64,000 nucleotides of DNA, taken from the NCBI GenBank assembly GCA_041619555.1, contig JBFKDQ010000005.1:31004-95003 (forward strand). The letters are read 5' to 3'. Within the stretch, counting starts at the first letter, position 1. Each line of letters begins with the position of its first letter. A program made the position numbers and the translations under genes. Positions 17,031 through 29,483 of the stretch are shown in pieces. The DNA is from Oceanococcus sp. Its GTDB lineage: Bacteria; Pseudomonadota; Gammaproteobacteria; Nevskiales; Oceanococcaceae. The notes beneath the pieces were generated by a model that was given only the letters and a program-made list of their open reading frames with translations, was not told the DNA's origin and searched no databases.

Positions 17031-20000
17031 TCAATCCAGGGCCTCCACCGCCGGATCGACCACTTCGGACGCTTGCGCCGTAGAAGCGAGATACAGTTCC
17101 AGGAACTTGTCCCGCGGCACGGCCGGACTCATCAGATAGCCCTGGAATTCGTCACAGCCCATCTTTTCCAGCAGCCAGCGCTGGCTTTCCGTTTCCACCC
17201 CTTCGGCCACGGTCTTGATGCCGAGGCTTTCGGCCAGCGCCACGATCGCGCGGCAGATCGCCGCGCGATCCGGATCGCTGTCGACATCACGCACAAACTG
17301 GCGATCAATTTTCAAAGTATTGATGGAGAAATTCTGCAGATGGGTCAAGGAGGAATAGCCCGTCCCAAAGTCATCCAGCGCGATCGAGAAACCCTTGTGC
17401 TTGAGATCATCAACCACCTGCCGGGCCTTGTCCATGTCGCGCATCAAGCCGGATTCGGTCAGCTCGATTTCCATCACGCCGGGACGGATTCCATAACGCC
17501 GGCAGTGCTCCGCAAAGGTGTGAACGACGCGATCATCGTTCAGGTTCACGCCGGACACATTGACCGCGATACGGACCTGCTTGCCGGACTTCTGCAGCCA
17601 ATGACGCAGATCATGACAGGCCCGCTGTATCACCCAGCAGTCGAGATCAAAGATCAGATCGGATTCCTCCGCCAGGGTGACGAACTCGACCGGAGAAATC
17701 CATCCACGCTGCTGATCATGCCAGCGCAGCAAGGCCTCGGCACCGGTAATCCGCCCTTTGAAGTCATACTTCGGCTGATATTGCAGTTCCAGCTGATCGG
17801 TTTCGATCGCGATGCGCAGGCGCGACTCCAGGTCCAGCCGCGCGGCGGCTCGGGCAGTCATGTCCTTGTCATACACCAGCAGTCCGGTCTTGCGGTGCCG
17901 CGCCTGTTCGTAGGCCGCAGTGGACGCGAACTTCATCATCGAAGCGATGTCTTCGGCATGCTCGGGATAGGTCGCGATGCCAATGGACAGAGAAACCGGC
18001 ACCCGATGCTCGCCAATCAAGATGGGCAGTGCAACCAGGGCATTGAAACGCTCCGCCAACGTGACCGCATAGGTTTCGGCGAAGTCATCGCGAACGAAAA
18101 TCGCAAATTCGGCCCCTTCGATGCGCGCCAGATCCTGGCCGACGGCCTCGGCGCAATTGTCATGCGTCAGGCGCATGAAATTCGCGACCAGGCTGCGCAG
18201 AAGATCATCCTTGCCTTTGCTGCCCAGGGTATCGGTGATCTGTTTCGGAATTGCGACGACCACACTCATGACGGCAAGGGACTCGCCTTTCGCCTTGGCC
18301 TGGCGCAAGGCATTCTCGGCCCGGAGGGTGAAAAGATCACAGTTGGGCAGCCCGGTGAGGGGATCGTAATAGGCCAACTGGTTCAATCTCGCTTTGCGCT
18401 CCTGGTTCTTGAAATTGATCCGCAGGAACAGCCACAGCAGCAGCAACACGACGATACTGTAAAGGCCGTAGGCCCACCAGGTCGCCCAGGGCGCTGAAAG
18501 CACCGTGATTTTCAATTCCAGGGCCTGTTCCGACCAGACCCCCTCGCTGTTGGAACCACGCACCCGGAAAACATACTCGCCGGCATCCAGATCGGTATAG
18601 GTGGCGCTGCGGCGCACGCTCGGCGCGCTCCAGCGACGATCGAAGCCCTCCAGCAGAACCGAATACAGATTCTTGTCCGGCGCCGCGAAATCCAGCGCTG
18701 CGTATTCCAGGGTCACCACGTCGTCGTCATGCTCAAGCACCAGCGACCGCAGGCGCGGCACGGGCACATTCAGCTGTGCCGGCTTGTTGAACTTCTCCAC
18801 TTGGGTCAGCACCAGTTTCGGGGCCGCCGTACGATTCTCGACTGCAGGCGGATCGACGATGTTGTAACCGCCGGCGCCACCGAAATACAGCAAGCCATTG
18901 CGCGACGCGAAATGCGCGCCGAAATTGAATTCATCGCCGAACAGGCCATGCTCCTGATGGAAGACCCGCACGCGTCGGCTTTCCGGGTCCAGGCGCATCA
19001 GTCCCTTGTTGCTGCTGAGCCAGAGCTGGCCGCCGCCATCGGCGCGGATGCCATAGATCACGTTGCTCGACAGTCCGTTGCCGGTGGTGAACCGCCGCAC
19101 GACCGGCGAACCACTCATCAGCGCCTCGCGTCCCAGCACCGCGACACCATGGCCGGCGGTACCGAGCCAGACATCTCCCCGCGGATCGACATGGATGCTG
19201 TAGATGGTTTCCGATGGCAGGCTGGCGGCATTCGCGGCCACTGCACGAAACCGGGTGATCTCGCCGTTGCCAGTGTTCAGTCGCGCCAACCCGAGATCTT
19301 CGGTACCGATCCAGATCTCCCCCTCCGGCCCGCCGGCCAGGGCGGTGGCCCGGCTGGTCACCAGGTCCGTATGGGGGCCGCCCCAGGCCACCCGACGGAT
19401 CTGCCCGGACTCCGCATCGATGCGGCTGACGCCACCATTGTACGTGCCGGCCCAGATCGAGCCATCGGCGCTTTCCAGCAAGGACATGACGCCAGGACTA
19501 CCCAGCGCATGCGGATCATCGCGACCGATGGGAAAGCCTTGCAGCCGCCCGGTTTCCGGCTCATACCGATACAGGCCCTGCAACTGAGTGCCAATCCAGA
19601 TGCGCCCACGCCGATCCCGCAGCAAAGACATGATGCGGGCATCAGCCAGGGCATCGACTTGCGCGTTCAAGGGCAAGTCACCCAACAGGCGCCCGAAGGC
19701 ATCCAGTCGCAGCAGACCCCGACCGATGGTGCCGAGCCAGATCTCTCCATCTGGCCCGTCGGCGAATGCATTCACATGAGCCCCGGACAACCAGGTCGGC
19801 AGACGGGCACCGAGCGACCAGCTGCGTGGGTTCCACCGGGAAACGCCACCGCCACGGGTGCCGATCCAGACCAGATCATTGGCATCCTGATGGATCGACA
19901 TGGCGTAATCATTGGACAAGCTGTAGGGGTCTGCCGGATTGTGCCGAATCTGCCTGAACGTCTGTGTCGCCGGATCCAGAACACTGACTCCATTCTGGGT

Positions 20001-20885
20001 GGCAAACCAGATCTGTCCGCTGCGATCTTCCAGAATGTCCTGAATCAGACCGGACAGCACCCCGTTCGCGCCGGCTTCGGCACTGGGATAGTTGACGAAA
20101 CCACGCCCCTCAGGCTCCCAGCGCGATGCACCGGCATCGCTGGTGCCGATCCACAGCCGCCCCTCAGCACCGGCATGCAGGGCGTAAATCTGGTCGCTGA
20201 GCAGACTGGACGGATCGCCGGGATCATGCCGAAAAATTTCGACCGACCGCCGGTCCGCATCGATCCGGTTAAGACCATTGCGGGTGCCCACCCAGACCGC
20301 GCCATCCTCTGATTCGGCAATGGCGGTCACGAAGTTGCCGCTCAGACCGAGCGCAGCCTGACGATCGGCGACATATTCGCCAATCAAATTGCCATCCGCA
20401 TCCAGCACATACACGCCGGCGCCGCGGGTGCCTACCCAGATCGTGCCATCACGGGCGATGACCAGCGCGGTGCTCCGCCGTCGTTCGAGTTGCGCGGTCC
20501 CGGTCTTGACCAGGAACGACTGGAACTCGTCATGATCGCGGCGCCAGCGCACCACCCCGGCTTCATTGCTTGCCAGCCACAAATCGCCACGCGCATCTTC
20601 GACAATCTTCCAGATGTAATCACTGGCCAGACCATCGCTGCCAAAGCGGTCGCGGTAATAGGTCTTGACCGTATAGCCATCAAAGCGATTGAGCCCGTTC
20701 TCCGTCGCCAGCCAGATGAAGCCGTGGGAGTCCTGCAGGATGTCGAGCACCGTATTCTGGCTCAGCCCTTGGCGCACGCCTAGGCGCTCGAACACATAGG
20801 GCGCGTCATCGTTGGCCCAACCCGGCATACAGGCGAACCATAGCAAGCAGATCCCGCTGACCAGGCGCCATACACACGGAAGCAT
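17031..20885 (-). CDS. Membrane sensor c-di-GMP phosphodiesterase: signal peptide, two-component-regulator beta-propeller repeats, Y_Y_Y domain, TM helix, degenerate GGDEF, intact EAL (start 20885 or 20957)
   Basis: GLSQNTVLDILQDSHGFIWLATENGLNRFDG and many D-x-x-G-x-x-W-x-G-T blades; YSVLLEGFDRRW...YTDLDAGEYVFRVRGSNSEG; TM after APWATWW; RIEGAEF replaces RxGGDEF; EAL domain has AEALLRW, EIELTES, DDFGTGYSS, KIDR, AEGVE, QGY. Confidence 0.9.
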   Translation of the reverse strand: MLPCVWRLVSGICLLWFACMPGWANDDAPYVFERLGVRQGLSQNTVLDILQDSHGFIWLATENGLNRFDGYTVKTYYRDRFGSDGLASDYIWKIVEDARGDLWLASNEAGVVRWRRDHDEFQSFLVKTGTAQLERRRSTALVIARDGTIWVGTRGAGVYVLDADGNLIGEYVADRQAALGLSGNFVTAIAESEDGAVWVGTRNGLNRIDADRRSVEIFRHDPGDPSSLLSDQIYALHAGAEGRLWIGTSDAGASRWEPEGRGFVNYPSAEAGANGVLSGLIQDILEDRSGQIWFATQNGVSVLDPATQTFRQIRHNPADPYSLSNDYAMSIHQDANDLVWIGTRGGGVSRWNPRSWSLGARLPTWLSGAHVNAFADGPDGEIWLGTIGRGLLRLDAFGRLLGDLPLNAQVDALADARIMSLLRDRRGRIWIGTQLQGLYRYEPETGRLQGFPIGRDDPHALGSPGVMSLLESADGSIWAGTYNGGVSRIDAESGQIRRVAWGGPHTDLVTSRATALAGGPEGEIWIGTEDLGLARLNTGNGEITRFRAVAANAASLPSETIYSIHVDPRGDVWLGTAGHGVAVLGREALMSGSPVVRRFTTGNGLSSNVIYGIRADGGGQLWLSSNKGLMRLDPESRRVRVFHQEHGLFGDEFNFGAHFASRNGLLYFGGAGGYNIVDPPAVENRTAAPKLVLTQVEKFNKPAQLNVPVPRLRSLVLEHDDDVVTLEYAALDFAAPDKNLYSVLLEGFDRRWSAPSVRRSATYTDLDAGEYVFRVRGSNSEGVWSEQALELKITVLSAPWATWWAYGLYSIVVLLLLWLFLRINFKNQERKARLNQLAYYDPLTGLPNCDLFTLRAENALRQAKAKGESLAVMSVVVAIPKQITDTLGSKGKDDLLRSLVANFMRLTHDNCAEAVGQDLARIEGAEFAIFVRDDFAETYAVTLAERFNALVALPILIGEHRVPVSLSIGIATYPEHAEDIASMMKFASTAAYEQARHRKTGLLVYDKDMTARAAARLDLESRLRIAIETDQLELQYQPKYDFKGRITGAEALLRWHDQQRGWISPVEFVTLAEESDLIFDLDCWVIQRACHDLRHWLQKSGKQVRIAVNVSGVNLNDDRVVHTFAEHCRRYGIRPGVMEIELTESGLMRDMDKARQVVDDLKHKGFSIALDDFGTGYSSLTHLQNFSINTLKIDRQFVRDVDSDPDRAAICRAIVALAESLGIKTVAEGVETESQRWLLEKMGCDEFQGYLMSPAVPRDKFLELYLASTAQASEVVDPAVEALD

Positions 20886-21177
20886 TGTGTCGGCGCCATC
20901 AGTTGGTCGAGCAGATCCGCGTGGACTGCAATCTTCGGTTTGCGCAATTGAAAGCATAGAAAGGGACTGGCCGCGGCGCGGAACACAGGCCGCACGGCAA
21001 TAATAATGTTGCAGTGTAAAGCCTAGCCCGCAGAGGAACAAACAAAACCCCACAGCCCTGCAAACCCCATGCCGTTGGTCGGTGCCATCGTCTTTCTGCT
21101 GGACCTGAGCGGCAAGCTTCAGTAGGATCAGAACAAATGTCCCGTACTGCATCCGTGCTACGAAGCGAACCAGAAAA

Positions 21178-23037
21178 ATGAAAATCGCCAAACTGTTTAT
21201 TCTCTGCTCAAGCGTGGTTCTGCTTGGCGATCAGCTCAGCTCCGCCACAGCTGTTCCGCAGAGCAGCGGCCAGCAGGTTGCCGCCCAGCTGACCTATCTG
21301 GTGCAGGCCGAGACCGCAACCGCCGCCGCATCTGCGGTCAAGACCGTATCCGGCCAGATCATCAGTCAGCTCGAGGTCATCGACGCGGTCGCCGCCAGAC
21401 TGGATCCGGCGCAGGTCGACCGCCTCCGCAAGGCCGGTCTGAGGCTTCATGAAAATCGGCAGATGAAACTTGCAGGAGACCTTTCCGAGGGCTCTGCGGA
21501 AGGAAAAAACAGCATTGCTGATTACGTGGCCTGGATTCAGGCCGACCGTCTGCATGCCGAAGGCATCGACGGCAGCGGCGTCACGGTCGCGTTTCTCGAC
21601 ACCGGTGTCTGGGAGAAGGTCGCCAAGAAAGCCGAGTTTCTCGCCTGGGCGGACACCAGCGGGGATGCCACCGGCGAAGAGAACCTGGACGGAAACGCAT
21701 GGAAAAACGTCAGCGATGAGAACGGTCATGGCAGCCATGTCGCCTCGGTGGTCACCGGCAACCGCAACGAGCCCAGCGGCAAGGTGAAAGGCGTCGCCCC
21801 AGGCGCACGCTTGGTCATGGTGCGTGCCTTTGATGCCGAGGGTAGCGGCTCCTACCTAGATGTCGTTGAAGGCATCGACTGGGTTGTTCGCAACAAGGCG
21901 GCTTTGGGCATCGATGTGCTCAATCTGTCATTTGGCGCCGAGCCCATATCGTATTATTGGGAAGATCCGGTCAACCAGGCGGTGATGGCCGCATGGGCAG
22001 CCGGCATCGTCGTGGTCGCCTCCGCCGGTAATACCGGCCCGGAGCCGATGACGATCGGCGTACCCGGCAATGTGCCCTATGTCATCACAGTGGGTGCGGC
22101 GGGCGATGGCCTGACCCCGACAGACGCCAGCGACGATCATCTCAGTCACTTTTCATCGACCGGACCGACAATCGAAGGTTTCGTCAAGCCGGAACTGATT
22201 GCGCCGGGCGAATATATTCTGGCGCGCATGGATCCTGACAGTAGCATCGCGAACGAGCACTACCAGAACCCGACCGACGAAGAAAAGGCGCTGCCGGAGA
22301 CGTACTACCGCATGTCAGGCACCTCGCAGTCGGCCGCCATCGTCAGCGGTGCGGTTGCGCTGATGCTGCAGGCCGAACCCGGTTTACGCCCCGATGAAGT
22401 CAAATGCCGTCTGATGAGCAGCGCCAGAGCCGCGATGAGATCCGCAGAGTCGCCGCTGTTCTCGATCTTCCAGCAAGGCGCGGGACTGATCGATGCGTAT
22501 GCCGCGGTCTACAGTCAGGCCAATGCTTGCGCCAATATCGGCCTGGATGTCAACGCCGAACTGCGAAGCGAAGCCCATTTCGGTGGCCTTGCCGCTTTCG
22601 ATGAAAACAGCGGCGAATATTTTCTTCGCGACCCCTCCGACAGCAGTGGCAACAGCCGAATCGAAGCTGAGGCCTATACCTGGGACGGCCAGTACAGTTT
22701 CAGCCAGGGTTACACCTGGGGAGGCCATAACATGATGAGTCAGGGGTACACCTGGGGTGGTCACAACAGCTTCAGCCAGGGTTATACCTGGGGTGGCCAC
22801 AACATCACGATGAATGGCTACACCTGGGGTGGTCACAATGGCGTCAGCCTCGGCTATACCTGGGGTGGTCACAATGGCGTCAGCCTCGGCTATACCTGGG
22901 GCGGCCACAACGGCACCATCTCCGGCTACACCTGGGGCGGTCATAATGTCGCCGTCACCGGCACGGCAGAGCAAAGTTCCCAGCCGGACACCAGCATCAG
23001 CATCAATCGCTGGGTCGAGCCTGAACCCCGCCCCTAA
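21178..23037 (+). CDS. Secreted S8 (subtilisin-like) serine peptidase with C-terminal GYTWGGHN tandem repeats
   Basis: Signal peptide, short prodomain, Asp (VAFLDTG), His (ENGHGSHVAS), oxyanion Asn (ASAGN), Ser (MSGTSQS). Confidence 0.92.
   Translation: MKIAKLFILCSSVVLLGDQLSSATAVPQSSGQQVAAQLTYLVQAETATAAASAVKTVSGQIISQLEVIDAVAARLDPAQVDRLRKAGLRLHENRQMKLAGDLSEGSAEGKNSIADYVAWIQADRLHAEGIDGSGVTVAFLDTGVWEKVAKKAEFLAWADTSGDATGEENLDGNAWKNVSDENGHGSHVASVVTGNRNEPSGKVKGVAPGARLVMVRAFDAEGSGSYLDVVEGIDWVVRNKAALGIDVLNLSFGAEPISYYWEDPVNQAVMAAWAAGIVVVASAGNTGPEPMTIGVPGNVPYVITVGAAGDGLTPTDASDDHLSHFSSTGPTIEGFVKPELIAPGEYILARMDPDSSIANEHYQNPTDEEKALPETYYRMSGTSQSAAIVSGAVALMLQAEPGLRPDEVKCRLMSSARAAMRSAESPLFSIFQQGAGLIDAYAAVYSQANACANIGLDVNAELRSEAHFGGLAAFDENSGEYFLRDPSDSSGNSRIEAEAYTWDGQYSFSQGYTWGGHNMMSQGYTWGGHNSFSQGYTWGGHNITMNGYTWGGHNGVSLGYTWGGHNGVSLGYTWGGHNGTISGYTWGGHNVAVTGTAEQSSQPDTSISINRWVEPEPRP
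22672..22947 (+). repeat. 36-bp / 12-aa coding tandem repeat, 8 units (GYTWGGHNxxxx)
   Basis: Units start at 22672, 22708, 22744, 22780, 22816, 22852, 22888 and 22924. Variation in the conserved core is mostly synonymous. Units 5 and 6 differ by one base. Confidence 0.95.
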
Positions 23038-23083
23038 GAACCAATCAAGCAGCCAACCAGGCCGCTAGCTCGCATTGGCAACT

Positions 23084-23313: not shown

Positions 23314-24498
23314 ATGTCAAACCACGAAGTCGTGGTGCTGAGCGCCGCTCGCACCGCCATCGGCACTTTCGGGGGCTCGCTCAAATCCGTGCCCCTGGCC
23401 GATCTCGCGACCACGGCCGTGAAGGAAGCCGTGAGCCGGTCCGGCGTCACCCCGAATGAGTTCGGCCACCTTGCCATGGGCACGGTGATTCCAACCACAC
23501 CGCGCGACGCCTATCTGTCCCGCATCGCCTCCATTCAGGCCGGCCTGCCCCAGGAATGCCCGGCATTCAACGTGAATCGCTTGTGCGGATCCGGCCTGCA
23601 AGCCATCGTTTCCGCGGCACAGGCGCTGATGCTGGGCGACGCCGAGGTGGCGGTCGGCGCCGGCGCTGAGTGCATGAGCCAGGGGGCCTACGGGCTGCCC
23701 AGCGGACGTTGGGGTGCGCGTATGGGCGATGCGCAGATTCTGGACTTCATGACCGGCGCCCTGCACGATCCCTTCGAAAATATCCACATGGGCATCACCG
23801 CCGAAAATGTGGCCGAACGTTACCAGATCAGCCGGGAACAGCAGGATGCCCTGGCCCTGGAAAGCCAGCAGCGCGCGGGCCGCGCGATCGCCGAAGGTCG
23901 GTTCAAGTCCCAGATCGTGCCGGTTGAAATTCGCAGCCGCAAGGGCGTCACCGTGTTCGATACGGATGAGCATGTGCGGGCCGACTCATCGCTGGAGGTG
24001 CTGTCCGGCATGCGCCCGGTTTTCAAGAAGGACGGTCTGGTCACAGCCGGCAACGCATCCGGAATCAATGACGGCGCCGCCGCGGTGGTCATGGCCACCG
24101 CGCAGGCCGCCGAACGGCTCAATGCCCGTCCGATCGCGCGGCTGCTGGGCTATGCCCATGCCGGCGTCGATCCGGCCTACATGGGCATCGGCCCGGTCCC
24201 CGCCACCCGCAAGGTCCTGCAGCGGACGGGGCTGAAGGTCGAGGATCTGGATGTGATCGAGTCCAACGAAGCATTTGCCGCACAGGCCTGTGCGGTGGTC
24301 AAGGAACTGCGACTGGACCCGGCCAAGGTCAATCCCAATGGCTCCGGCATTTCGCTTGGCCATCCGGTTGGCGCCACCGGGGCGATTATCACCACGAAGG
24401 CCCTGTACGAACTGCAACGCATTCAGGGTCGTTATGCACTGGTCACCATGTGCATTGGTGGCGGCCAGGGTATTGCGGCAATTTTCGAGCGGATCTGA
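23314..24498 (+). CDS. bktB: Acetyl-CoA C-acyltransferase (beta-ketothiolase, BktB-like)
   Basis: NRLCGSG (catalytic Cys), TAGNASGINDGAAA, NEAFA, GHPVGATG, MCIGGGQG; recognisably close to BktB; AGGAG RBS. Confidence 0.88.
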   Translation: MSNHEVVVLSAARTAIGTFGGSLKSVPLADLATTAVKEAVSRSGVTPNEFGHLAMGTVIPTTPRDAYLSRIASIQAGLPQECPAFNVNRLCGSGLQAIVSAAQALMLGDAEVAVGAGAECMSQGAYGLPSGRWGARMGDAQILDFMTGALHDPFENIHMGITAENVAERYQISREQQDALALESQQRAGRAIAEGRFKSQIVPVEIRSRKGVTVFDTDEHVRADSSLEVLSGMRPVFKKDGLVTAGNASGINDGAAAVVMATAQAAERLNARPIARLLGYAHAGVDPAYMGIGPVPATRKVLQRTGLKVEDLDVIESNEAFAAQACAVVKELRLDPAKVNPNGSGISLGHPVGATGAIITTKALYELQRIQGRYALVTMCIGGGQGIAAIFERI

Positions 24499-24501
24499 AG
24501 C

Positions 24502-25350
24502 ATGAGTATCAATCATCTGGGCGTCATCGGCGCCGGCCTGATGGGCCATGGCATTGCACAGATCGCGGCCATGGCTGGCCTCGGCGTGGTCCTCGTCGAT
24601 CTAAATGATGAAACCTTGGAGCGCGGCATGTCGAGCTTGCGCAAGAGTCTCGACAAGAGCGTCGCCAAACAGAAAATCAGCGCGGCCGATCGCGACGAGG
24701 CCCTGGCGCGTATTCGCACCACAACCAACTATGCTGACCTGGCCGGTGTCGATCTGGTGATCGAGGCCGCAACAGAGAATCTCGACATCAAACGCAAGAT
24801 TCTCCAGCAACTCGACGGCCTTCTGCCGGCCGACGCGATCATCGCCACCAATACCTCGTCGCTGTCGGTGACCGAACTGGCGGCAGCCACCGGACGACCG
24901 GAGCGCTTCGTGGGCATGCATTTCTTCAACCCGGTGCCCTTGATGAGCCTGGTCGAAATCATCAGCGGACTGCAAACCAGCGCAGCGACCCACACGGCGG
25001 CGATGGAATTTGCCCACCGGATCGGCAAGAACCCGATTGCGGTCAAGAATGCCCCCGGCTTTGCCGTAAACCGCATTCTCTGCCCGATGATCAACGAAGC
25101 CATTTTCGTTCTGCAGGAAGGGATTGCGACGGCCGAGGACATCGATGCAGGGATGAAGCTGGGCTGCAATCAACCCATCGGTCCGCTGGCGCTGGCGGAT
25201 CTGGTCGGTCTGGACACCCTGCTCAGCATCATGGAGACCTTCCACCATGAATTTGGCGACCCGAAGTACCGTCCGGCCCCCTTGCTCAGGGAACTCGTGG
25301 CGGCAGGCCATTACGGACGCAAGAACGGGCGGGGTTTCTACCGTTACTGA
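24502..25350 (+). CDS. hbd: 3-hydroxybutyryl/3-hydroxyacyl-CoA dehydrogenase
   Basis: GAGLMGHGIA, IEAATE, TNTSSLS, GMHFFNP, PGFAVNRI, PIGPLALADLVGLD motifs. Confidence 0.9.
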   Translation: MSINHLGVIGAGLMGHGIAQIAAMAGLGVVLVDLNDETLERGMSSLRKSLDKSVAKQKISAADRDEALARIRTTTNYADLAGVDLVIEAATENLDIKRKILQQLDGLLPADAIIATNTSSLSVTELAAATGRPERFVGMHFFNPVPLMSLVEIISGLQTSAATHTAAMEFAHRIGKNPIAVKNAPGFAVNRILCPMINEAIFVLQEGIATAEDIDAGMKLGCNQPIGPLALADLVGLDTLLSIMETFHHEFGDPKYRPAPLLRELVAAGHYGRKNGRGFYRY

Positions 25351-25474: not shown

Positions 25475-26509
25475 ATGAAGCCACCCGCGCCTACAGCCGA
25501 CGAAACCGAGCGCCTCGAAGCGCTTGCCAGCCTGCATATCCTCTATTCGCCAGCCGAAGCACGTTTCGATCGCATCACCCAGCTGGCACAAAAGATATTC
25601 GATGTCCCCATCGCCCTGATCAGTCTGGTCACCAGCGACTGCCAGTGGTTCAAGTCCGCGCAGGGACTTCTCGCCGAGCAGACGCCGCGGACCGTATCCT
25701 TCTGCGGGCATGCCATCCATCAAGACCAGTGTTTCCTCGTTGAGGATGCTTCGACCCATCCGGATTTTCAGGATAATCCACTGGTTGCAGGCGCGCCGCA
25801 CATCCGCTTCTACGCAGGCCAGCCAGTGCGCTATGCCAATCGCCGCATCGGCACCCTCTGCCTGATTGACCGGCGCCCCCGCAAGCTGGAAGAAATCGAT
25901 CTTCAGACCCTACGCAATCTCGCCGAATGGGTGGAAAACGAGCTGAAAGTCACCGCGATGAGTACGCCCCAGACGCTCTTGCTGGCCGAGCTTAACAATC
26001 AAGGGCGACGCCTGCTGGTGGATTCCGCGAGTGGCTGCTGGAATCGCCGTGCTGCCGAAATCCTGGTGCCGCGCGAGTTGGGCGCCTGTGATCCGGAGGC
26101 TCGGATCACCGCAATTGAGGCGTACTGGATGCAGGATGAAGAACTGCCAGAATCTTCCGGCCCGGTGGTCCCGTTGAAAGCCATTGCCAGAGCTCTGCGC
26201 GATGTCATCGCGGCGGAAGATCTGATCGTGCAGCTTGGCGCCGACCGCTTTCTGCTGCTCTCGCTGCACCTGGACTCCCCGGGTGCGCAAGCGCTGGTCA
26301 CACGACTGGAACAGCGCCTGCGGGGCGTGCTGCGGACCTGCGCTGCGGACTCGACATTGGGCGCACTGATCTTGCGTGGCTTTTCAGGTCCGCTTGAACG
26401 GGATCTGAACCTGGCCCAGATTGAGTCCCGCTGCCATGCTGCCGAAAAAGCCGCCAGCGCAGATTGTGGCGCGCTGTATTTTCGGCTGCAGACACCAGAC
26501 CGCGCATAG
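25475..26509 (+). CDS. GAF sensor domain fused to a degenerate GGDEF-like domain
   Basis: ETERLEALASLHIL, FDRITQLA, SFCGHAI, HIRFYAGQP, IGTLCLID (GAF); C-terminal GCWNRR...QLGADRF in place of RxGGDEF. Confidence 0.75.
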   Translation: MKPPAPTADETERLEALASLHILYSPAEARFDRITQLAQKIFDVPIALISLVTSDCQWFKSAQGLLAEQTPRTVSFCGHAIHQDQCFLVEDASTHPDFQDNPLVAGAPHIRFYAGQPVRYANRRIGTLCLIDRRPRKLEEIDLQTLRNLAEWVENELKVTAMSTPQTLLLAELNNQGRRLLVDSASGCWNRRAAEILVPRELGACDPEARITAIEAYWMQDEELPESSGPVVPLKAIARALRDVIAAEDLIVQLGADRFLLLSLHLDSPGAQALVTRLEQRLRGVLRTCAADSTLGALILRGFSGPLERDLNLAQIESRCHAAEKAASADCGALYFRLQTPDRA

Positions 26510-26596: not shown

Positions 26597-26872
26597 TCAG
26601 CGCCGCCAGATTTCGATGAACAGCATGCAAAGAAGATAGATACAGAACAGCATGTCCATGAGCACCAAAGTGCCCGCTTCAAAGGGATCATCGCTGTGAA
26701 TATTGGTATGGCGGAAGCTCCAGACCCCGAGATACATCAGCGTGCCATGCACGACCAGACGCCATTTCTGCCGCCGCGCCTCCTGCATTCTTTGCGCAGC
26801 CATGGCCCGTGCCTTGGCCTCTCTGCCCTTGTTGCCAAGTCTCCGCGGCGTGCGCGGATCGATATACACCAT
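26597..26872 (-). CDS. Small hypothetical membrane protein (two hydrophobic segments)
   Basis: Fills the gap between the GAF gene and the TonB receptor; basic N-terminus then VVHGTLMYLGVWSF and GTLVLMDMLFCIYLLCMLFIEIW helices; GGAGG upstream. Confidence 0.4.
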   Translation of the reverse strand: MVYIDPRTPRRLGNKGREAKARAMAAQRMQEARRQKWRLVVHGTLMYLGVWSFRHTNIHSDDPFEAGTLVLMDMLFCIYLLCMLFIEIWRR

Positions 26873-27056
26873 GCCTCCCCCGTGTGCTGACATGCTTGCT
26901 GCCCCCGCTCAAGTCTACCGTGAGCGCTACGGCACAGTCTGCCCGGACGCATTGCCGCTAGGCCTTTGCGGTAATTTTGGGCATCATCACCCGGCAAGCT
27001 GCATGGGGATCCGGCTTGCTCGGTACATCACCGGTCATTGGGAGACCACCATCAAC

Positions 27057-29483
27057 ATGTCTGTCACACGTCTTGCAGCGAGCTCATCATCATCCGCCTC
27101 GGCAGGCCGATTGGTCACCACAGCCGGGGCAGCCCTGCTGCTTGCGCCCGTGCTCGCTTACGCCGAACCGGCGCAGGATGCCGGCATCGGACAGACAGCC
27201 GAAGCCGGTGCGGCCGCCCGGCAACCGTCGACGAGCGAGAACGTAATCACTCTCGAGGAAGACAAACCGCTCTTAAACACCCCACGCCGTCCGCCAGTGA
27301 CTCTGGAAGAAATCGTCGTGACCGCGCAGAAGCGCCCGCAAGCGCTGGGTGATGTGCCCATCTCCGTGACCGCCGTGGACGGCGCAAAATTGCAGGACAG
27401 CGGCATTGAAAATCTCACCGATCTGTCCGAATACGCGCCCAATTTCAAACTCGTCGACAGCGGCCTGATCCCCAATGTGTACATGCGCGGGGTCGGCTCG
27501 GGTTCGAATCAGGGCTTCGAGCTTTCAGTCGGCATCTTTGCCGATGGCATTCATCTGGGGCGGCCACATCAGAGTCGCGCCGCCTTCATGGACGTTGAAC
27601 GGGTCGAAGTGCTGCGTGGGCCGCAATCGATCCTCTTCGGCAAGAACGCGATCGCCGGCGCGCTGAACATCATTTCCGCCCGCCCCGGCAGCGAGACCGA
27701 AGCCCAACTCAGCGGTGCGCTGGGCCTGCTGGCGGATGACACGGAAATGGCGGCCGTGCTTTCCGGCCCCCTCACCTCGTGGCTGGGCGCCCGACTGGCC
27801 CTGCGCCAGCGTGGCGAACAGGGCGATCTTGAGAACCCGCTGCAGGAGCGCAAAGAGCCCGGCGTGGACGAACAGGCCGCCCGCCTGACCCTCGACCTGT
27901 GGCCGGATGGTGACTGGAGCAGCAGCCTCAAACTGGAACGCACACGCCGCGAACAGCGCGGCCGCCGCTTCCAGACCACAGCTCCGGGTTCCCTGACCCG
28001 CTGTACCGGTGAGGATGTCCGTCTCGACCGCGCCAAGGTCACCGATGCGCGTGAAGTCGCCCGCATCGAAGCCTTTAATATCACCCTGAGCACGGATAAG
28101 GAATTGGCGGATGGCGAACTGAGCCTGGTGTCCGGATACAACGGCTTTGACTCCAGCGATCTATTCGATGCCGACTCCAGCAGTCTGGATACTCTGGCCC
28201 TGCTCGGCGAGGAAAGATATCGCCAGTTCAGTCAGGAAATCCGCTATGCCGCCAGCACCGTGGGCGTCCTCGACTATACGGTCGGCGCCTTCTTCCAGCG
28301 GGGCGATCTCAACTTCTATGAATTCGGCCCGACCAAAGCTCGCGCCGGCGCCCTGAGCGACAGCCCGAGTTGCGATGCCAATCTGGAGGTCATCGCGGCG
28401 GCCGATCTGGAACGTGACTTCCGGATCGACGGCGACGCCTGGTCGCTATTTGCCCAGACGACCTTCTGGTGGTCGCACGCCTGGCGCACCACCCTGGGCC
28501 TGCGTTACGTCCACGAGACCAAACGCGGCTACCGGCGTTTCGACATTTACGAGCCCGGCACGCGGCAGCAGGCCAATCCGGCCACCTTGCTCGCGCTCGA
28601 CCGACTCCTGATCAATGAACACGAACTGCAGCGCAGCCGTGAGGTCAGCAATCTGCTGCCCTCAGTCAACCTGCAATTTGACTGGAACGACGACGTGATG
28701 CATTACCTCGCCTACACCCAGGGAGCCAAGTCTGGCAGTTATGATGCCCGCAACAACAATGGCAACACCGATGCCAGTGGCGGCGCCACCCGCTTCGAAT
28801 TCGATGACGAGGTGGCCGATGCCTTCGAACTCGGTAGCAAGCTGCGCCTGCTGCAGGGTGCGGCAAGTCTCAATCTGGCTCTCTACCATGTCCGCTACAA
28901 GGACATGCAGGTCAGCGTCTACGATGGCGTCGCCGGCTTTACCGTGACCAATGCCGGCAGTGCCCTCACCCAGGGCCTGGAGATCGATGGCCGATGGCTG
29001 TTCAGCGAATCCTTGAGTTTCAATGCCTCGCTGGCCTTGCTTGACTTCGAATGGCTGGATTACGTCGACGGCCCCTGCCATGCCAATTCCGACAATGTGG
29101 ATCCGGATACCGGCACCTGTGACATGACCGGCAAGGAGAATCAGCAAACCCCCAAGCTGACCGGCAGCCTGTCGGCAAGCTACATTCACCCCATGCCGAA
29201 TGCGCACTGGCTTTCCCTCACCCTGGATGCCAGCTATCGAGGGCGCCACTACACCTCCGGCGACCTGGACCCGCGTGGCACCCAAAATGCCCTGGCCCGC
29301 TACAACGCCCGCCTGTCATACGGACCTGCGGACGATCACTGGGCCATCGCCCTGGTCGGCAAGAATCTCGGCGACGCGTTGAGTATCGGCATCGGCGCAC
29401 CAACCTCGCTGGATCTCGGCGGTTACCGCGTGGCGACCGAATCGAGCCGCAGCCTCGCGCTGGAGTTTCGCTCGCGCTTCTAG
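27057..29483 (+). CDS. TonB-dependent receptor
   Basis: TonB box-like LEEIVVTAQKR, plug DVPISVTA and ERVEVLRGPQSILFGKNAIAGALNI, C-terminal aromatic (RSRF); GGAG upstream of ATG 27057. Confidence 0.92.
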   Translation: MSVTRLAASSSSSASAGRLVTTAGAALLLAPVLAYAEPAQDAGIGQTAEAGAAARQPSTSENVITLEEDKPLLNTPRRPPVTLEEIVVTAQKRPQALGDVPISVTAVDGAKLQDSGIENLTDLSEYAPNFKLVDSGLIPNVYMRGVGSGSNQGFELSVGIFADGIHLGRPHQSRAAFMDVERVEVLRGPQSILFGKNAIAGALNIISARPGSETEAQLSGALGLLADDTEMAAVLSGPLTSWLGARLALRQRGEQGDLENPLQERKEPGVDEQAARLTLDLWPDGDWSSSLKLERTRREQRGRRFQTTAPGSLTRCTGEDVRLDRAKVTDAREVARIEAFNITLSTDKELADGELSLVSGYNGFDSSDLFDADSSSLDTLALLGEERYRQFSQEIRYAASTVGVLDYTVGAFFQRGDLNFYEFGPTKARAGALSDSPSCDANLEVIAAADLERDFRIDGDAWSLFAQTTFWWSHAWRTTLGLRYVHETKRGYRRFDIYEPGTRQQANPATLLALDRLLINEHELQRSREVSNLLPSVNLQFDWNDDVMHYLAYTQGAKSGSYDARNNNGNTDASGGATRFEFDDEVADAFELGSKLRLLQGAASLNLALYHVRYKDMQVSVYDGVAGFTVTNAGSALTQGLEIDGRWLFSESLSFNASLALLDFEWLDYVDGPCHANSDNVDPDTGTCDMTGKENQQTPKLTGSLSASYIHPMPNAHWLSLTLDASYRGRHYTSGDLDPRGTQNALARYNARLSYGPADDHWAIALVGKNLGDALSIGIGAPTSLDLGGYRVATESSRSLALEFRSRF

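Follow-up and report, generated by a model that had tools for sequence, protein, structure and literature searches.

A family-wide tryptophan-repeat tail on predicted secreted S8 peptidases: a candidate substrate or partner of the protease itself

Described repeat precursors and the window array

Yeast alpha-factor and the fungal KEX2-processed repeat proteins are secreted precursors in which tandem identical peptides are cut by kexin, an S8 protease. The KEX2-processed repeat proteins (KEPs) have been described from fungi (PMC9769878), and an enzyme-precursor arrangement that can be either fused or split is known from the burpitides (PMC11253845). In this study, we analyzed a window of 64,000 nucleotides from Oceanococcus sp. 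(assembly GCA_041619555.1, contig JBFKDQ010000005.1, positions 31,004 to 95,003 of the forward strand; positions below are counted from the first letter of the window), focusing on a repeat array at the C-terminus of a 619-amino-acid (aa) S8 peptidase. This protein is a subtilase with a novel C-terminal extension that appears architecturally analogous to enzyme-fused repeat precursors. We tentatively favor, as the leading one of several readings, that the array serves the protease as its own substrate or partner and would be cut into short Trp peptides after export.

The window protein shares with alpha-factor and the KEPs a secreted array of near-identical short units, an S8 protease and a variable copy number. 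KEPs are recognized by a secretory N-terminus and at least three near-identical units, and the window protein combines a predicted secretory N-terminus with seven identical cores. However, the alpha-factor and KEP systems are eukaryotic, depend on a Golgi kexin and have a precursor that is never fused to the protease, whereas here the two are fused. No Lys or Arg occurs anywhere in the window array, so dibasic (KR/RR) sites at its unit boundaries number zero; a kexin-type dibasic site at the unit boundaries was found only in the Haliea-type split proteins described below. In the burpitide BURP-domain cyclases and the borosin enzyme OphMA, repeated cores lie inside the enzyme or in a separate adjacent precursor, which is the same cis/trans architecture as here, and aromatic Tyr/Trp cores are common to these systems and the window array. 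Those enzymes are a copper cyclase and a methyltransferase of plants and fungi, whereas ours is a protease beside which no enzyme for cross-linking or tailoring is present or conserved. The array was found in cis in ~190 proteins and in trans at six loci; the likeness is an analogy only, with no BURP domain.

The cyanobactin precursor PatE is another multi-core precursor processed by S8 proteases (PatA and PatG), and the window protease gave a weak NCBIfam match to PatA/PatG (TIGR03895, 45.7 bits against a cut-off of 421). Unlike the cyanobactin system, it lacks a macrocyclase or DUF domain, recognition sequences and a separate leader; neither this locus nor 86 related loci had PatE-like precursor, heterocyclase or macrocyclase neighbors. 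Clustering of the neighbors at 84 loci revealed no conserved radical-SAM, P450, prenyltransferase, transporter or other gene typical of peptides made by ribosomal synthesis and post-translational modification (RiPPs), and the recurrent neighbors were only signaling proteins, paralogous S8 genes and artefactual antisense open reading frames (ORFs). A preliminary description of the array had offered, as one alternative, a multi-core precursor cut by the protease itself and analogous to repeated-core RiPP precursors. A modified RiPP is unlikely, given that tailoring enzymes are not conserved in the vicinity, while cutting by the protease has gained indirect support from a separate secreted array beside a tail-less protease in Halieaceae.

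Repeat array of the window protease and its family

The array (22672-22947) is read in the frame of ORF 21178-23037 (+). Its units are, in order, AYTWDGQYSFSQ, GYTWGGHNMMSQ, GYTWGGHNSFSQ, GYTWGGHNITMN, GYTWGGHNGVSL, GYTWGGHNGVSL, GYTWGGHNGTIS and GYTWGGHN(VAVT). Unit 1 is degenerate (core AYTWDGQY), and units 2-8 carry seven exact 8-aa GYTWGGHN cores at 36-nt spacing, separated by the 4-aa linkers MMSQ, SFSQ, ITMN, GVSL, GVSL and GTIS, with VAVT after the last core. Tandem Repeats Finder reported a period of 36, 6.8 copies and a score of 201, together with the higher-order periods 72 and 108. The preliminary description, which had counted eight repeats with an 8-aa core and four variable residues, was right on the core and its linkers; its eighth repeat is reached only by counting the degenerate unit 1.

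We compared units 2-8 in all 21 pairs. The eight core codons showed 74 synonymous and 0 non-synonymous differences, and the four linker codons showed 4 synonymous and 71 non-synonymous differences. Each unit is under purifying selection at the amino-acid level, as had been claimed, and the linkers drift. Units 5 and 6 differed by a single nucleotide (TAC/TAT at 22821/22857), while the remaining pairs differed at 6-17 of 36 nt, in agreement with the earlier proposal of a recent duplication. Two ORFs in other frames cross the repeat, 22384-22974 (-; 196 aa, antisense) and 22814-23068 (+; 84 aa, sense), and both are repetitive. They are by-products of the G+C-rich repeat; the synonymous-only variation fits the S8 frame alone.

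The window DNA comes from a short-read marine metagenome, and we examined Logan contigs of four marine metagenome runs over the array. The contigs from all four runs broke within it, and the unitig joining units 5 and 6 had a depth of 1-2.3 times that of the flanks, being elevated in two of the four runs. For these reasons the precise GVSL unit count of the assembly is not confirmable, and the Logan contigs neither confirmed nor refuted copy-number variation of the window allele. Near 22766-22798, run X4 contained a contig of a related allele or species (…GEGYTWGGR…, like homologue P0003), and several carriers of this protease family co-occur in that metagenome sample.

W-repeat tails were then found throughout the family, a point that, like the conserved C-terminal motif and the syntenic propeller sensor, the preliminary description did not contain. 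All 120 of the 120 best homologues (40-52% identity; from Abyssibacter, Gammaproteobacteria, Acidobacteriota and Thermoanaerobaculia, many of them named 'AprX' by JGI) carried one behind the same folded extension, as did most of 80 reference-genome loci from Steroidobacterales, Woeseiaceae, Alteromonadaceae, Holophagae and Chloroflexota. In total, tandem tails in cis were seen in ~190 homologues of Gammaproteobacteria, Acidobacteriota and Chloroflexota. The window array, with its 12-residue unit, is the local version of a C-terminal module that secreted S8 peptidases carry throughout the family.

The consensus unit of the family is G-[YF]-x-W-[SATN]-x, in which W alone is invariant; the His and Asn of the window unit are private to this protein when set against its best homologues. 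The modal W-W spacing was 6 in 146 of 182 proteins and 7, 9, 10, 11, 12, 14 or 15 in the others, and the repeat period among homologues spanned 5-15 (5 and 13 included). In many arrays, two hexamers take turns (GYTWSR/GYTWSK, GYLWNN/GYLWNQ), so that a super-period of 12 residues results. The hexapeptide G-[YF]-x-W-[SATN]-x is the ancestral unit, and we infer that the window 12-mer may be a hexamer pair with a decayed second hexamer (compare unit 1, AYTWDG-QYSFSQ, with GYTWGG-RYLQSQ of the nearest relative, P0002). The arrays of 123 of 193 members are followed by a terminal W-V-x-[QN]-[EQ] that forms the exact protein end (consensus S-I-N-x-W-V-x-Q-E). More distant S8 proteins (32-36% identity) have analogous tails, such as GVVWGT, SVNWN or DGILMS, the last of them repeated ~40 times. 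The ~40 DGILMS copies belong to a Pyrinomonadaceae metagenome-assembled genome (MAG; L083, 9620-12043), where an S8 protein of 32% identity bears a Trp-free hexamer array, so the hexamer-array habit extends beyond the Trp motif. An extreme expansion was seen in a Chloroflexota MAG (L053, 5701-8166), whose 822-aa S8 protein has ~45 heptamer units (GFTSWAD/GYQSWAD).

Units are gained and lost quickly. The homologues P0006 (603 aa) and P0010 (589 aa) are 100% identical save for exactly one 14-aa unit, and P0005 and P0013 are 93% identical and two units apart; the variable copy number proposed in the preliminary description is therefore borne out across relatives. Two tandem S8 paralogues of the family were present at L009, L026, L035, L037, L050, L055 and L063. 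At L035 and L055 the paralogues have a common repeat type despite only 61-63% identity of their catalytic domains. Both L035 paralogues carry GYAWSG with serine codons AGC and TCT both in use, and at L035 and L050 the units are identical in amino acids with mixed codons. Unlike units were found at L009 (GYTWSQ/GYLWNN), L063 (GYVWAG/GYLWTG) and L037. Such patterns could arise if tails undergo gene conversion or if a genome-specific motif is selected for. Comparison of paralogues and alleles indicated that the unit sequence is conserved within a protein and diverges fast between lineages.

Evidence on processing and competing readings

We modeled the window protein with AlphaFold2 (AF2), using 120 homologues. 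The predicted local distance difference test score (pLDDT) was 31-41 over tail residues 516-610, and it was 35.6 for a regular hexamer-type tail. The repeat array is probably intrinsically disordered, which suits the low-complexity tail that had been considered earlier. Because two AF2 runs gave no tail fold, a fold search on the tail alone would be meaningless. A structure prediction had been suggested as a check, and a match of the tail to a characterized domain as a refutation; neither a fold nor a match was obtained. Searches of Pfam and NCBIfam (E<=1) returned only S8-type matches, no match there or in PDB covered the tail, and LbH hexapeptide, pentapeptide, RTX, CW_binding_1, GW, PKD and PPC repeats or domains were not matched in Pfam/NCBIfam at E<=1. 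A homology search with the 121-aa tail alone gave 287 word candidates, none of which scored, with compositional filtering the likely cause. Exhaustive phmmer with aa 440-619 against 1.84 billion representatives returned S8 members and spurious low-complexity eukaryotic or periodic proteins only, giving no evidence for the W-repeat tail on other enzyme families. One of the periodic hits, the unrelated P0157 (671 aa), repeats the 12-aa Trp motif PDFSWRVQNSIx ~30 times and probably represents another family of repeats, one that folds. We found no literature account of a Trp-repeat subtilase tail or of a protease/Y_Y_Y sensor pair. The tail module, its terminal motif, its fused and split forms and the synteny are absent from Pfam, NCBIfam and PDB and did not turn up in the literature searches, while the enzyme class itself is ordinary.

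These results bear most directly on two structural alternatives. The Tenebrio antifreeze protein is built of 12-residue coils, and the preliminary description had considered a folded beta-solenoid or beta-helix with stacked Trp/Tyr and His ladders and with metal or polysaccharide as its ligand. Both the period of 12 residues in the window array and the hexamers that alternate pairwise in many homologues would suit such a coil. We nevertheless consider it very unlikely, given the pLDDT values, homologue periods of 5, 7, 9, 10, 11, 13, 14 and 15 that are hard to square with a fixed coil, the lack of His/Asn conservation outside the window protein and the lack of a match to a solenoid family in Pfam. 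The reading in which we place least credence is an amyloid-like or phase-separating tail that incorporates the protease into a matrix. The sequence is of low complexity and rich in aromatic residues, Gly, Ser and Asn, and the S8 peptidase Vpr has been seen in fibril form (PDB 8jmw), though that fibril has no such tail. The units of many lineages are, however, highly charged (GLSWAD, NPWTDA, FSEQAANPWGRRD) and would be poor amyloid formers, and no conserved matrix-fibre gene lies nearby.

The array also occurs as a separate protein. At six loci of Halieaceae (L071, a Haliea MAG; L075; and L086-L089), the family S8 peptidase has no array and retains one vestigial unit, NRKWGVKDH. At L071 and L075, a small ORF with its own signal peptide lies ~300 bp downstream of the tail-less S8 gene and encodes tandem FSEQAANPWGRRD units besides a conserved segment, LVHRVSHxLAA, and two SGYKWG motifs. 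At the four further loci (L086-L089), a response regulator (RR)-GGDEF-EAL gene is followed by the tail-less S8 gene and then, again at ~300 bp, by the W-repeat ORF. Homologues of the small protein (n=30) are 81-210 aa long, with 2-8 FSEQAANPWGRRD units each. Such a small secreted protein standing beside the protease in one lineage makes the array more likely a substrate or partner than a folded domain. Judged from these sequences, the cis/trans pair shows the array to be an apparently autonomous module that is functionally tied to the protease. The gene order of the whole block at L071 and L086-L089 is GGDEF-EAL, GGDEF, RR-GGDEF-EAL, tail-less S8 and W-repeat small protein, mostly with a sulfatase, an Acyl_transf_3/SGNH acyltransferase and DUF3604 on its 3' side.

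As to the register of the separate proteins, Arg occupies the second position after the tryptophan (W+2) in 101 of 103 split-type units, 28 of 30 split-type proteins end at W+3, and all 6 of the 6 partner proteases have Glu at the S1-rim position equivalent to BPN' 156. In addition, the Haliea-type stand-alone proteins present a basic site, W-G-R-R/K, at each unit boundary. The W+2 Arg, the stop at W+3 and the Glu at 156 would fit cleavage after W-G-R by the protease.

Wells et al. 1987 reportedly identified position 156 of subtilisin BPN' as an active-cleft and P1 determinant. Within the unit of the wider family, hardly any charge lies outside W+2, and the charge there complements the residue equivalent to this position, for which the same role is given in PMC7471176. 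Where 156 was acidic, 39% had a basic and 11% an acidic W+2; the respective values were 1% and 58% for a basic residue at 156 and 9% and 25% for any other. The raw Spearman coefficient of 156 against W+2 charge was -0.54. The contrast between acidic and basic 156 persisted weakly at the level of clusters at 30% distance (Fisher ~0.008, hand-computed). The covariation is suggestive only.

The raw complementarity between the S1 rim and W+2 would also suit a C-terminal propeptide or pseudo-substrate that shields the active site or aids export and is then degraded at maturation with no further role. Lysostaphin has a comparable tandem-repeat pro-region, as have Gram-negative secreted subtilases in their C-terminal pro-regions or PPC domains. 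Removal of C-terminal extensions after secretion is, as general knowledge, common in secreted S8 enzymes, and the split form is compatible with a propeptide, since propeptides can also work in trans. However, an inhibitor needs neither many strictly conserved identical units nor their rapid expansion, an N-terminal propeptide is already present, the tail is not docked on the enzyme in the AF2 model, and the 156/W+2 covariation is not robust. We therefore judge a propeptide rather unlikely.

Binding is the rival to which we give most room, as possible though doubtful. In that case, a multivalent flexible adhesive Tyr/Trp tail would hold the exoprotease on the envelope, on matrix polysaccharide or on particulate substrate, comparable to choline-binding repeats, GW modules and the aromatic faces of carbohydrate-binding modules, and copy number would tune its avidity. 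Surface-binding repeats typically combine a conserved aromatic motif with free linkers and a varying copy number, degraders living in sediment and soil, as the carriers are, profit from retaining their enzymes, the terminal motif could serve as a docking element, and the adjoining genes control cyclic di-GMP (c-di-GMP) and hence biofilm. Against this, known binding repeats were not matched (Pfam at E<=1 gave only Peptidase_S8), and the charge of the unit ranges from basic to strongly acidic between lineages, which speaks against one common ligand. The free, enzyme-less array of Halieaceae is not predicted by anchoring either, unless it binds the protease non-covalently.

Under the favored reading, the array would be disordered and multivalent, and its short linear motifs would have the protease itself as partner. 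Once exported, the S8 domain would cleave either the tail that it carries or the stand-alone repeat protein, so that one short Trp peptide is released in many copies. The case for processing draws on the family-wide tail, the selection on units, their turnover, the missing fold, the fission, the register, the charge pattern, the synteny and the fused/split precedent of the burpitides, and we hold this reading with no more than moderate confidence. If the array is processed, it would be a bacterial counterpart of the kexin-processed repeat precursors and a rare Gram-negative candidate for a peptide signal.

A weaker step may follow in Proteobacteria, where the released peptides or the intact array would act on the adjacent twin-propeller/Y_Y_Y sensor and so couple protease export to c-di-GMP turnover or a phosphorelay. 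Such a sensor lay within 300 bp of the S8 gene at 21 of 33 full-flank proteobacterial loci, and a Reg_prop/Y_Y_Y sensor started within 1 kb at 26 of 45; as an internal control, 0 sensors were found in 303 kb surveyed at 5-9.5 kb from S8 genes. The sensor often lies 4 bp downstream of the protease in the same operon. The pairing also occurs in the nearest relatives of the window locus and, with hybrid histidine-kinase outputs, in distant Gammaproteobacteria; at split-type loci, RR-GGDEF-EAL genes take the place of the propeller sensor. Disordered Trp motifs dock on beta-propellers or other domains in the TolB box of colicin E9 and in the eukaryotic GW/WG 'Ago hooks'. The array resembles them in being Gly/Ser/Asn-rich, apparently disordered and multivalent in Trp motifs, and a beta-propeller protein is encoded next door; unlike them, it has no sequence homology to these motifs, and the propeller here is a Reg_prop one of the hybrid two-component system (HTCS) type, whose known ligands are sugars.

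We consider it unlikely that the peptides or the intact array address the neighboring sensor. The complete scheme of an exoenzyme-coupled peptide signal in Gram-negative and other bacteria, in which each exported protease molecule would free the n copies of a lineage-specific Trp peptide that it bears or that are co-expressed with it, and the sensor would read them and reset c-di-GMP or the phosphorelay, seems no likelier. If true, it would let the cell measure its own protease staying nearby (an 'efficiency sensing' loop), and HTCS-type propeller sensors would have peptide ligands. The fused/split arrangement and the tight linkage to sensors and c-di-GMP lead to the hypothesis of an extracellular protease wired to signaling via its own repeat array.

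Several points weigh against processing and signaling. In most hexamer arrays, neither a spacer nor a conserved cleavage site is present, and the conserved terminal motif is accounted for neither by processing nor by the rival readings. A low AF2 score is no proof of disorder, particularly with repeat-scrambled or shallow alignments. The split form belongs to a single clade and hence represents one evolutionary event. The 156/W+2 covariation did not hold up in phylogenetically independent pairs (6 consistent, 5 opposite and 5 ties; p = 0.5), and a 'P1 = W+2' model is not obviously transferable to the window protein, which has Gly at W+2 and Thr at position 156. All 22 of the 22 tail-bearing Chloroflexota loci lack the sensor (0/22 within 300 bp of the S8 gene), and the solved sensors of the HTCS class (BT4663 and relatives) bind oligosaccharides, not peptides.

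Members of the protease clade (Woeseiaceae, Steroidobacterales, Acidobacteriota and Chloroflexota) are abundant in metagenomes of soil, freshwater and marine sediment. Databases label the clade only 'S8/AprX', and its most distinctive feature is the fast-evolving Trp-repeat tail with the conserved terminal motif. If the tail is an anchor, it would be a new enzyme-retention device relevant to protein turnover in sediments; either way, this hypervariable repeat is a useful marker when strains are typed. Cultured carriers of W-repeat proteases exist: Abyssibacter profundi (P0009), with 15-aa units and the same divergent sensor; Alteromonas salexigens ASW11-19 (L032), with 13 GTSWNE units and a sensor 149 bp downstream; Steroidobacter gossypii and flavus (L030, L064); and Glaciecola sp. 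SC05 (L066).

Protease domains, neighboring sensor and other genes

The features of the locus are listed in Table 1. Peptidase_S8 (PF00082) was the sole Pfam match of the protease at E<=1 (aa 132-419, E 2e-54), and the best PDB sequence matches were to Tk-SP of Thermococcus (3afg/9ues, E 3e-50). The triad D141/H184/S383 and the oxyanion residue N285 map onto D32, H64, S221 and N155 of BPN' (PDB-verified BPN' sequence). In the AF2 model, the propeptide and the catalytic domain were both confident, the latter with pLDDT >90. Foldseek aligned the model to pro-subtilisin E (3whi) and ProN-Tk-SP (3afg), prodomain included; an I9-like N-terminal propeptide is thus recognized by its predicted fold and by Foldseek, with no Pfam I9 match at E<=1. 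The triad order, the oxyanion Asn and the fold identify an S8 subtilase (Foldseek TM up to 0.91 against subtilisins), and the whole-model search returned subtilisins only (E 4e-29 for the Tk-SP type). PDB 8jmw ('fibril form of serine peptidase Vpr') was among the structural neighbors of the catalytic domain, and S8 filaments are possible without such tails.

Table 1. Coordinates of the repeat-tailed protease, its parts and the adjoining sensor
Feature	Position	Strand	Basis
Gene of the 619-aa secreted S8 (subtilisin-like, 'AprX'-labelled clade) peptidase with repeat tail	21178..23037	+	Pfam PF00082, PDB matches
Predicted Sec signal peptide (MKIAKLFILCSSVVLLGDQLSSATA)	21178..21252	+	read from sequence; AF2 pLDDT <50 for aa 1-24
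N-terminal propeptide, beta-alpha-beta-beta-alpha-beta, aa 38-97	21289..21468	+	AF2 pLDDT 87-98; Foldseek
S8 catalytic domain: D141, H184, N285, S383; T286 = BPN' E156, G294 = BPN' G166	21571..22434	+	Pfam, PDB, BPN' alignment
Family-specific folded C-terminal extension (CANxGLDxxAxLxxExHFGG...) before the repeats	22495..22671	+	AF2 pLDDT 84-95; 84-98 up to ~aa 500
Repeat array: degenerate unit 1 and seven GYTWGGHN cores, variable 4-aa linkers	22672..22947	+	period 36 nt
Units 5 and 6 (GYTWGGHNGVSL twice), 1 nt apart, most recent duplication	22816..22887	+	pairwise unit comparison
Non-repetitive Ser/Thr/Gln-rich spacer (VAVTGTAEQSSQPDTSI)	22948..22998	+	low pLDDT
Family C-terminal motif S-I-N-R-W-V-E-P-E (S608-E616), then three extra residues PRP	22999..23025	+	family comparison
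Membrane sensor: periplasmic twin Reg_prop propeller, Y_Y_Y, degenerate GGDEF, EAL	17031..20882	-	Pfam, PDB homology
Divergent intergenic region, sensor/protease	20883..21177	.	between divergently transcribed genes

The window protease has >2500 homologues; its own exact product had no record in the contig index. Subtilases of the Tk-SP type (3afg, 9ues) and those labelled 'AprX' share with it the catalytic fold, the triad and the N-terminal propeptide. Tk-SP has a C-terminal beta-jelly-roll, whereas the alignment of the window protease to 3afg/9ues stops at aa 449-450 and repeats are found instead; all PDB alignments are over by aa 450, and nothing in PDB spans the folded extension and the W-repeat tail. 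In this extension, C451, A452, N453, G455, D461, L462, G464, H467 and G470 are nearly invariant, as is V613 of the terminal motif. The name 'serine protease AprX' (KEGG K17734) is only the one that JGI gives to homologues. AprX of Bacillus subtilis has no signal peptide and no repeat tail, whereas the N-terminus of the window protease looks like a Sec signal peptide. As for C-terminal sorting signals, PEP-CTERM, GlyGly-CTERM, LPXTG and the C-terminal domain of type IX secretion had no match in NCBIfam/Pfam; the protein ends ...SINRWVEPEPRP, with no hydrophobic helix.

The GGDEF motif of the neighboring sensor reads EGAEF and is degenerate, while its EAL domain is apparently intact (EALLRW, DDFGTGYSSL, EGVE). 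From these motifs, the sensor is probably a ligand-gated c-di-GMP phosphodiesterase. Its start is uncertain: the listed TTG at 21191 overlaps the protease gene, and the true start is probably the Met at ~20882. The periplasmic part showed full-length homology to the sensor domains of Bacteroides HTCS proteins (BT4663 and relatives; 3v9f and 4a2l, E 2e-77 to 3e-78). As in polysaccharide utilization loci, the sensor lies beside a secreted hydrolase that could generate its ligand. Unlike in Bacteroides HTCS, the output is a degenerate GGDEF and an EAL domain (a hybrid kinase at other loci), and the hydrolase is a protease rather than a glycanase. Upstream of the protease, no Rfam family (c-di-GMP riboswitches included) and no sigma-70 consensus was detected.

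Directly 3' of the protease lies an operon for a 394-aa thiolase and a 282-aa 3-hydroxyacyl-CoA dehydrogenase (23314-25350, +), which is not kept beside the protease in related loci. A second c-di-GMP-type gene, 2.4 kb downstream of the protease, encodes a GAF-domain protein with a weak partial GGDEF match (25475-26509, +; E 1.5e-4). It is followed by a 926-aa ORF (26703-29483, +) that resembles a TonB-dependent outer-membrane receptor by sequence, with a plug-like segment (EEIVVTAQKR...DVPISV).

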